This document shows positions 60,852 to 64,000 of a DNA stretch of 64,000 bases, in pieces. A model generated the notes under the pieces. It had not been told where the DNA came from. It saw only the letters and a program-made list of their open reading frames with translations, and searched no databases. The stretch is from a phage. The position numbers were made by a program, and so were the translations under genes. The DNA lies in the sequence record PZ171032.1, one strand, 5' to 3'. The first letter of the stretch is position 1. Every line of letters starts with the position of its first letter.

Positions 60852-60858
60852 AAAAAGG

Positions 60859-60955
60859 TGCTAGGTGATGGAATCGAACCACCTATGTATTCAACGACTA
60901 CCTCGTCTATTTTCAGGATTAAAAATCCTCGCCCTTGCCAAAGGGCTTACCTAGC
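60859..60955 (-). tRNA. atypical tRNA-like element (about 97 nt; anticodon loop UUUUUAA, so Lys-UUU if functional; possible pseudo-tRNA)
   Basis: Good acceptor (GCTAGGT/ACCTAGC) and T-arm (GGTGG-TTCGATT-CCATC) but about 30-nt variable region with internal hairpin and no encoded CCA. Confidence 0.35.
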
Positions 60956-63431: not shown

Positions 63432-63918
63432 AGCTGCCTCCTCTTCAAGTTATAGAAAAACTTACTGTATCGCTTTGTAACGAGCTTTTCTATCAAACTG
63501 GTGCGATTGCCTTACTTGGTATAGTTTATATGGCTGTGGAGCGATTTAGGGGCCTCATTGTCCGTTTCCACACATAAACTTTATCCAAACTCGCGCGGGA
63601 GGCTCTCAACCGACTCCTTACGGCGCTGGCAAGCTTTCGTCGGTGGTCCACATTAGTGCTCGGCCTTTGGCCTGCGCTATCGCTTCGCTCCCACACATGT
63701 TAACAGACCTGCATGTGTGCACTATGGAGGCCCGGCATCTCGCCCCTCGTAGGCGAGTGCCAATGAAGGGCCGACACTACCTATAGTAAGTAATAAATTT
63801 AAAACATGGTACTTAGGATCTAGTATATTCTACATAAGTTAAGTATATGTACTTTAGTACCATAAGTACTAGATCTTTTATTTTTTTATTATTTAGTTAT
63901 TTTAGTTATATTCTTTAT

Positions 63919-64000
63919 GTGTCCGTATCACGGACAGTAGTGTCCGTATCACGGACAGTAGTGTCCGTATCACGGACAGTAGTGTCCGTATCACGGACAG
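63919..64000. repeat. tandem direct repeats of a 21-bp unit GTGTCCGTATCACGGACAGTA (3.9 copies, truncated by window end)
   Basis: Exact copies at 63919-63939, 63940-63960, 63961-63981 and a partial fourth; each unit has inverted repeat GTCCGT-atc-ACGGAC. Confidence 0.9.

Follow-up and report, generated by a model that had tools for sequence, protein, structure and literature searches.

Four palindromic sites in tandem at the right end of a 64,000-nt stretch of phage DNA (record PZ171032.1; "the window" hereafter means this whole stretch), together with the A/T-rich DNA that adjoins them, are best read as the iterons and the unwinding element of a dispensable replication origin. We put the probability of this reading at roughly 55%. 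The sites are very probably bound by the product of the gene next door, a 116-aa winged-helix protein known as ORF79 in phage rV5, which, as read in relatives, is encoded just past the window end on the minus strand. An origin is favored by the closest characterized relatives of this protein, by the occurrence of the same half-sites in O-like initiator genes, by the adjacent unwinding element, and by the uniqueness of the sites in the genome. The original prediction had listed an origin, an operator, a partition site, and a packaging site as candidate functions; the origin is the best supported of these, and the operator stays a live rival.

A tandem array of four palindromes

The repeat occupies positions 63919–64000 with a period of 21 bp, 3.9 copies, and 100% matches to the unit GTGTCCGTATCACGGACAGTA. 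Tandem Repeats Finder and direct reading of the letters both confirm the exact 21-bp repeat that had been described. The inverted repeat reported within each unit, GTCCGT-atc-ACGGAC, is present, but the core is slightly larger, namely a 17-bp palindrome, TGTCCGT-ATC-ACGGACA, with arms of 7 bp. The four palindromes, which have no strand and contain the core TGTCCG-N5-CGGACA, lie at 63920–63936, 63941–63957, 63962–63978, and 63983–63999 and are thus spaced by 21 bp. A motif search found no further match with up to two mismatches in the 64-kb window, and there is no other site with at most one mismatch anywhere in the whole rV5-type genome.

All four units and their GTAG spacers are identical in the window array. 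None of 119 database relatives has four identical units with identical spacers (the best reaches 96% identity over the stretch), and the homogenized array has no exact match in the metagenome contigs searched. The perfect identity of the units could be genuine, through recombination between repeats, or could stem from consensus building or assembly; that the array exists is not in doubt. Several short-read contigs of rV5-like phages in the Logan assemblies end within or just before the array. Hence, the repeat breaks assemblies, which bears on how far the copy number and homogeneity in any one assembly can be trusted.

Variation of the array among Vequintavirus phages

The last 2 kb of the window are 90–99% identical to about 120 phage records, all of the genus Vequintavirus (rV5-like Escherichia coli myoviruses), some of which are mislabeled "Campylobacter phage". 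The window corresponds approximately to the first 64 kb of an rV5-type genome, with nearly all genes on the minus strand and a tRNA cluster at 60.6–61.6 kb. The comparison with related phages that had been suggested as a check shows the array in about 119 Vequintavirus genomes, in two to four copies; some records merely mark it as "repeat_region" (database annotation). Most relatives have four sites with 22/21/21 bp spacing and diverged centers, one has three sites, and one has two, the last of these being a viable phage. The array evidently expands, contracts, and homogenizes via recombination between units. In the relatives, it is followed by about 75 bp and then by the stop codon of the 116-aa minus-strand gene. 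The repeats had been thought to run on beyond the window; as the inspected relatives stop at two to four sites before this short flank and the gene, probably nothing more is hidden there.

Variable positions were counted in eleven Vequintavirus sequences, including a lineage with a synonymous divergence (dS) of about 0.5. The half-sites, that is, the arms TGTCCG and CGGACA, vary at 1 of 48 positions and the spacers at 0 of 13, compared with 5 of 20 in the 5-bp centers and 24 of 75 in the flank between the array and the gene. The difference between arms and flank is significant (Fisher p = 2e-5). Conserved half-sites around variable centers are the pattern expected of a dimer that reads two half-sites. 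On the other side of the array, the T-rich stretch varies at 4 of 45 positions and the GTAC-rich part at 17 of 96, so that constraint on the latter is only moderate. In the ORF79 gene, 59 of 348 positions vary and the ratio of non-synonymous to synonymous divergence (dN/dS) is 0.10–0.26. Judged from these alignments, ORF79 and its presumed sites are both under purifying selection.

The neighboring protein ORF79

ORF79 is annotated as "putative transcriptional regulator" in many records and as "replication initiation protein" in RefSeq, and it matches the PHROG "replication initiation protein" families 12838, 8102, 428, and 270. An AlphaFold (AF2) model built on an eight-sequence alignment is a winged helix with a predicted local distance difference test score (pLDDT) of 80, compared with 43 for a single-sequence prediction. 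The top Foldseek match of the model is 4RO3, which is also matched by sequence profile (E 2.6e-12). This structure is the DNA-binding domain of RepA from the Vibrio cholerae satellite PLE (PMC7145576). PLE RepA was shown experimentally to bind semi-palindromic, non-coding iterons and to drive PLE replication with the helper-phage replisome, and it was placed in the RepA_N family by structure rather than by sequence (PMC7145576). The next Foldseek matches are the N-terminal domains of staphylococcal RepA_N proteins (4pql, 4pt7, and 5kbj) over about 114 residues (108–115 columns), whereas the alignments with ordinary winged-helix regulators are limited to about 70 residues. By analogy with these proteins, ORF79 appears to be the equivalent of the DNA-binding N-terminal domain of RepA_N and lambda-O-like initiators.

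ORF79 proper is confined to the genus Vequintavirus. Distant homologues are few among 1.8 billion representatives: a word-indexed search returned Vequintavirus copies only, and an exhaustive search added a handful. Two of the distant homologues, P0010 and P0011, are longer than ORF79 and have C-terminal tails. These tails are acidic and end in -APF, and -LAPF is the end of the short O-like protein in one of the viral families. Both endings are reminiscent of the C-terminal tip of the single-stranded DNA-binding protein SSB, DDDIPF, which recruits replication proteins.

Distant homologues are also carried by the Seunavirus 4MG and the Mydovirus Ro1 (BLASTP E 6e-6; the 4MG protein matches PHROG 8102 with E 6e-37). 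Beside each of them is a tandem repeat of its own, different in sequence and spaced by 23–24 bp, followed by an A-rich tract with GATCT motifs. Different proteins and different repeats in one layout have the look of cognate protein–site pairs. At the corresponding place in phage phi92, no comparable small winged helix-turn-helix (wHTH) gene or repeats were found. We infer the binding of ORF79 to the iterons from this co-variation of protein and repeat, from the conservation of the half-sites, and from the equal depletion of gene and array in the transposon data described below. The earlier view of the repeat as an iteron-like array of dimeric protein-binding sites is thereby partly supported, the supporting points being the conserved half-sites, the winged-helix gene next door, the genus-wise co-variation of repeat and homologue, and the half-sites in O-like genes.

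Half-sites in initiator genes of other phages and bacteria

IMG/VR and GTDB genomes were scanned at the DNA level only for two adjacent TGTCCG-N5-CGGACA sites (21 specified bases). In IMG/VR, the scan found 21 viral contigs in about eight sequence families, none of them rV5-like and most of them G+C-rich, with arrays of two to seven sites at 20–25 bp. In every family, the array lies within a long open reading frame (ORF), just downstream of the region encoding an N-terminal winged helix, and in five of the eight families this ORF matches "replication initiation O-like" or "replication initiation protein" PHROGs. In GTDB, there are 112 bacterial loci with tandem half-site arrays. The ORFs spanning them match only replication-initiation, DnaD-like loader, and replisome-organizer families and no other named category. 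The loci checked individually, from Actinoplanes, Cellulosimicrobium, and a Parachlamydiaceae metagenome-assembled genome (MAG), have their arrays inside initiator-type ORFs with an N-terminal wHTH.

The profile of the ORF79 family aligns with the N-terminal domains of the array-bearing O-like ORFs with a probability of 97% and an E value of 5e-11 (hhalign). On the coding strand, the order in the O-like loci is DNA-binding domain, iterons, and a purine-rich or A-rich tract, and the order in the window is identical. The site variants TGTCCGCGTGGCGGACA and TGTCCGTATTGCGGACA are identical in Vequintavirus and in a viral contig of 70% G+C.

Two further observations come from the same scan. Arrays of three to seven sites occur in O-like or DnaD-like initiator genes of unrelated phages and prophages of Actinomycetota, Chlamydiota, and unknown hosts, so that one half-site pair is common to very divergent initiators. 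In addition, several contigs of single Kofleriaceae MAGs each hold two to five TGTCCGAATACCGGACA sites at exactly 20-bp spacing; the ORFs spanning them have no family match, and the sites may belong to multiple mobile elements or to a dispersed repeat.

The adjoining A/T-rich stretch

Upstream of the array in window coordinates, positions 63786–63918 have a G+C content of 20%. The part that touches the array, 63874–63918, is the proposed DNA-unwinding element. It is strand-asymmetric, with 9% G+C and 32 T among its 45 bases, and is A-rich on the minus strand, which codes for ORF79. By nearest-neighbor free energy, the A/T-rich stretch is the least stable duplex of the window at 40, 60, 100, and 130 bp. 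For 100 bp it reaches −101 kcal/mol, whereas the window averages −134 (sd 5.5) and the runner-up has −115; the stretch is also less stable than any other in the rest of the rV5 genome (60–138 kb).

At 63872–63884 on the plus strand, GATCTTTTATTTT is an exact match to GATCTnTTnTTTT, the consensus of the 13-mers in E. coli oriC, and includes a GATC (Dam) site. The match is unique in the window, where 0.04 would be expected, although this is a post-hoc observation.

The remaining segment, 63786–63873, has no strand and contains four GTAC sites, AGTACT, two GATC sites, TAAGTA repeats, and short inverted repeats. The GTAC sites, at 63809, 63849, 63857, and 63866, compare with 0.2 expected from shuffles and form the densest cluster of the window. 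AGTACT at 63865 is the only copy in 64 kb, and AGATCT lies at 63871. Composition and motif counts thus bear out the A/T-rich stretch with GTAC motifs and AGTACT and AGATCT palindromes that had been noted beside the array. The segment is possibly occupied by a second factor, and a promoter scan found no sigma-70 consensus promoter in it. Window-wide, GTAC is under-represented (111 sites against about 250 expected per 64 kb) and yet clustered four-fold in the 133-bp A/T-rich segment at 63786–63918. A likeness of TTACTATAGG, on the minus strand in the 63780s, to a T7-type promoter was set aside because rV5-like phages are not known to encode a single-subunit RNA polymerase; the motif also varies among relatives.

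Effects of transposon insertions in phage Bas54

Transposon-insertion sequencing (HIDEN-SEQ) of phage Bas54 (MaxBurger) was reported in a 2025 preprint (10.1101/2025.11.20.689424). Bas54 is 97.7% identical to the window at this locus. The homologue of ORF79, bas54_0212, has insertions at 17 of 20 TA sites with a mean count of 13.6, and bas54_0213, a small ORF overlying the iterons, has insertions at 4 of 7 TA sites with a mean count of 18.1; both are classed "Intermediate" (10.1101/2025.11.20.689424). Flanking and downstream genes of Bas54 that are classed "Non-essential" have mean counts of 128–192 (10.1101/2025.11.20.689424). The ORF79 gene and the array are therefore depleted together about ten-fold. 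Polarity cannot account for this, since there is no depletion in the genes downstream, and the equal depletion of gene and array argues that the two work jointly.

Proposed mechanism of initiation

The anatomy, conservation, homologies, and joint fitness effect described above lead us to propose three steps at the locus: binding, unwinding, and initiation of replication. ORF79 is expressed early, from its own sigma-70 promoter, and dimers of it would bind the four sites beside its minus-strand gene. With a spacing of two helical turns, the protein would coat the sites on one face of the helix and distort the DNA. Such distortion would help to open the adjoining 45–130 bp of A/T-rich DNA, where the helicase, primase, and polymerase of the phage could then enter. 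Because ORF79 has no recruiting C-terminal domain, helicase loading is presumed to need other phage factors, with an SF1B (PIF1/RecD-like) helicase as the candidate. rV5 encodes such a helicase as well as recombination functions (PMC3606486), and PLE RepA depends on a helicase of the SF1B class (PMC7145576). The locus raises phage fitness and is nonetheless dispensable, presumably thanks to other routes of initiation.

Evidence against an origin and alternative functions

Several observations weigh against a replication origin at this locus. The winged-helix fold fills the 116 residues of ORF79 and leaves no recruiting C-terminal domain, and no helicase loader was seen adjacent to the gene. 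ORF79 has no match to the Pfam RepA_N model (PF06970, E ≤ 0.1) or to the Phage_rep_O models, and its matches to DUF6945 and HTH_36 are just below the cut-offs. Winged-helix domains are common to initiators and regulators. The ORF79 homologue and the array are non-essential in Bas54 (10.1101/2025.11.20.689424) and hence cannot be the sole way in which the phage starts replication. Another non-coding region is essential: the Bas54 equivalent of rV5 (NC_011041) positions 104013–106618 has no insertions over about 2 kb (10.1101/2025.11.20.689424). In rV5, this region comprises 2.6 kb without ORFs, flanked by gene blocks that converge on it. It abounds in inverted repeats and in dispersed repeats of the ACTGTTTAC type, Rfam has no match to it, and it is a candidate for the main origin. 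The position of the array, 1.5 kb from where the cumulative GC skew has its global minimum and at the divergence of the two major transcription units, speaks for an origin, but skew in rV5 follows the direction of transcription (PMC3606486) and is confounded by it.

Two further points against an origin would suit an operator. In 4MG and Ro1, the repeats sit in a divergent promoter region in a rearranged context. In Burkholderiales MAGs, palindrome pairs 20 bp apart overlap the stop codons of PAS/Sigma54_activat/HTH_8 genes, so the sequence is also used in a transcriptional setting; these pairs look like sites of enhancer-binding proteins and an unrelated use of the sequence. If ORF79 were a transcription factor, the array would control a promoter in the A/T-rich stretch or, as a roadblock, would stop read-through from the early genes for a kinase-like ATPase, a phosphoesterase, and ORF79 into the downstream genes on the way to the tRNAs, the lysis genes, and the terminase. 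Many regulators have a winged-helix fold (ORF79 has weaker matches to CodY, MarR, GntR, and LexA-type domains), there is no terminator between ORF79 and the downstream genes, which makes control of read-through plausible, and the fitness cost in Bas54, being moderate and not lethal, would fit a regulator. Against this, the sites form a single cluster in the genome and lie downstream of the ORF79 stop codon rather than at its promoter. A promoter scan that covers sigma-70 consensus sites only gave none within the array or beside it, and the rV5 annotation has no promoter there. The closest characterized relatives of ORF79 are initiators, the array-spanning ORFs elsewhere match replication-initiation families only, and the most meltable DNA of the genome, which adjoins the sites, has no obvious role in an operator. 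We regard control of transcription, in either version, as the main rival, though an unlikely one.

The module of gene and sites could also be left over from a truncated O-like or RepA_N cassette that no longer fires and serves, for example, to bind or titrate the initiators of competing phages or satellites with the same iterons. ORF79 does lack a C-terminal half, which every array-bearing O-like protein has, its iterons are not within the gene, and the module is non-essential; the site variants common to Vequintavirus and the 70% G+C contig suggest a specificity shared by very different elements. This explanation is improbable given the strong purifying selection on gene and half-sites and the measurable fitness cost of disrupting either in a prophage-poor K-12 host, both of which point to a function in the life cycle of the phage itself. 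The A/T-rich and G+C-rich non-coding DNA downstream of the array has no similarity to O-like C-terminal domains either; considered as a decayed C-terminal half, it gave chance-level matches only when compared by blastx and blastn with every array-bearing ORF and locus.

Each unit can also fold as a hairpin with a 7-bp stem and a 3-nt loop, and the array is directly downstream of ORF79 on the transcribed strand, so the four hairpins might act in the 3' untranslated region as terminators or RNA-stabilizing barriers. No T/U run follows any hairpin, though, and a scan for terminators (L001, 5000–8000) found none. Variation at the loop-closing positions is uncompensated, and the arm change CGGGCA breaks a pair on the transcribed strand. 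The arm sequence is kept in unrelated phages, where it lies within coding regions and in either orientation, which points to sequence-specific recognition and not to generic hairpins. Disruption of the protein gene also gives a fitness defect equal to that of the array, and we consider an RNA element very improbable.

A packaging (pac) or partition site, with ORF79 as a small-terminase-like or centromere-binding protein, would account for a repeat array beside the gene for a small DNA-binding protein, which shares its direction of transcription with the terminase gene about 4 kb from it; one of the viral families also has its array 1.5 kb upstream of a large terminase gene. The family matches of ORF79 are initiators and not terminases or ParB/ParG types. 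rV5 is lytic with a circularly permuted genome (PMC3606486), and no partition ATPase is nearby. Insertions in the array and in the ORF79 homologue are tolerated in Bas54 (10.1101/2025.11.20.689424), whereas a pac site and the protein that recognizes it would be expected to be required. Both of these earlier suggestions are thus unsupported, and we give them hardly any weight.

Other features of the flanking DNA

Between the A/T-rich stretch and the next gene lies a conserved, non-coding element at 63540–63785 on the minus strand (240–258 nt), with a G+C content of 57%. It is more conserved than the neighboring coding genes, even in lineages with a dS of about 0.5. Most relatives carry an 18-bp indel that the window lacks. 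Rfam has no match to the element, whether at gathering or at permissive thresholds, and the alignment fold shows no compensatory base-pair changes; single-sequence folding z-scores are weak (−1.05 for the minus strand and −2.66 for the plus strand). The rV5 annotation puts a 56-aa ORF78 within the element, and its Bas54 equivalent, bas54_0215, is classed "Intermediate" (10.1101/2025.11.20.689424). Possibly, this is a structured element of RNA or DNA that has not been described before.

Within the tRNA cluster, the minus strand at 60857–60955 contains a 99-nt tRNA-like gene for which ARAGORN gives the four-base anticodon atcc and Rfam a weak tRNA score of 35.5 bits. Its counterpart in phage LL12 is annotated as tRNA-Lys, with an inconsistent isotype. 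In LL12 and rV5, the large terminase gene (equivalent to about 58–60 kb of the window) is annotated as interrupted, in two to three joined pieces and "intron-containing".

Significance and comparison with known systems

Phages of the rV5 type are widely used in E. coli therapy and biocontrol and have no defined replication origin. The rV5 genome paper sought the origin by skew only and does not mention the repeats (PMC3606486). ORF79, the four iterons, and the unwinding element make up a concrete three-part candidate, a locus that phage engineers may wish to keep or exploit. Beyond this genus, the DNA-only scan shows that the half-sites mark origins within O-like initiator genes across distant phages, which could aid the annotation of origins in metagenomes. 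A bolder and rather doubtful proposal is that a minimal, single-domain initiator of 13 kDa opens an extragenic origin for an SF1B helicase and the replisome and that TGTCCG-N5-CGGACA is an ancient "iteron code" that related winged-helix initiators read in phages of Proteobacteria, Actinomycetota, and Chlamydiota. If both parts were true, evolution would have preserved the origin specificity of this class of initiators far better than the proteins, and origins could be predicted from DNA alone.

PLE RepA is the closest solved relative of ORF79 by profile and fold, and its gene is likewise separate from non-coding iterons, which are semi-palindromic direct repeats (PMC7145576). It has no helicase or primase activity and depends on the phage replisome (PMC7145576). 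PLE is a satellite, whereas the window comes from a lytic phage of 137 kb, and the iteron sequences differ. PLE RepA also has a C-terminal domain, and ORF79 consists of the N-terminal domain only. Iterons and RepA are required for PLE replication, whereas the rV5-like module is dispensable.

In ori-lambda, four 19-bp imperfect inverted repeats and an A/T-rich tract lie in the middle of gene O (PMC7466680). Both loci have four (2–6) imperfect palindromic iterons of 17–19 bp at about two helical turns (PMC7466680), and in both the order is the coding region of the DNA-binding domain, iterons, and A/T-rich tract, with transcription through the origin. Two iterons and the A/T-rich region are the minimum for lambda (PMC7466680), and two is also the number of sites in one Vequintavirus relative. 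The lambda origin is inside gene O, whereas the ORF79 gene ends 75 bp short of the iterons, and the array is out of frame with the gene. Lambda O has a C-terminal domain that recruits P-DnaB, which ORF79 lacks, and O and ori are essential, unlike the ORF79 module.

The RepA_N plasmids pSK41 and pTZ2162 (4pql, 4pt7, and 5kbj) have the DNA-binding fold in common with ORF79 over about 114 residues. Their initiators bind semi-palindromic direct-repeat iterons as dimers, as is predicted for ORF79. Their iterons lie inside repA, and their C-terminal domain is host- or genus-specific; in both respects, they are unlike the ORF79 locus.

Dispensable origins are familiar from T4 (oriF and oriG) and T7 (the primary origin), each of which has an unwinding element beside it and an early or middle promoter upstream. 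Losing such an origin only delays growth, as other modes of initiation take over; transcripts serve as the primers there, and no protein is dedicated to binding iterons. Set beside these systems, the locus described here would be a variant of the known iteron origins in which the initiator consists of no more than a DNA-binding domain, with both iterons and unwinding element downstream of its gene.

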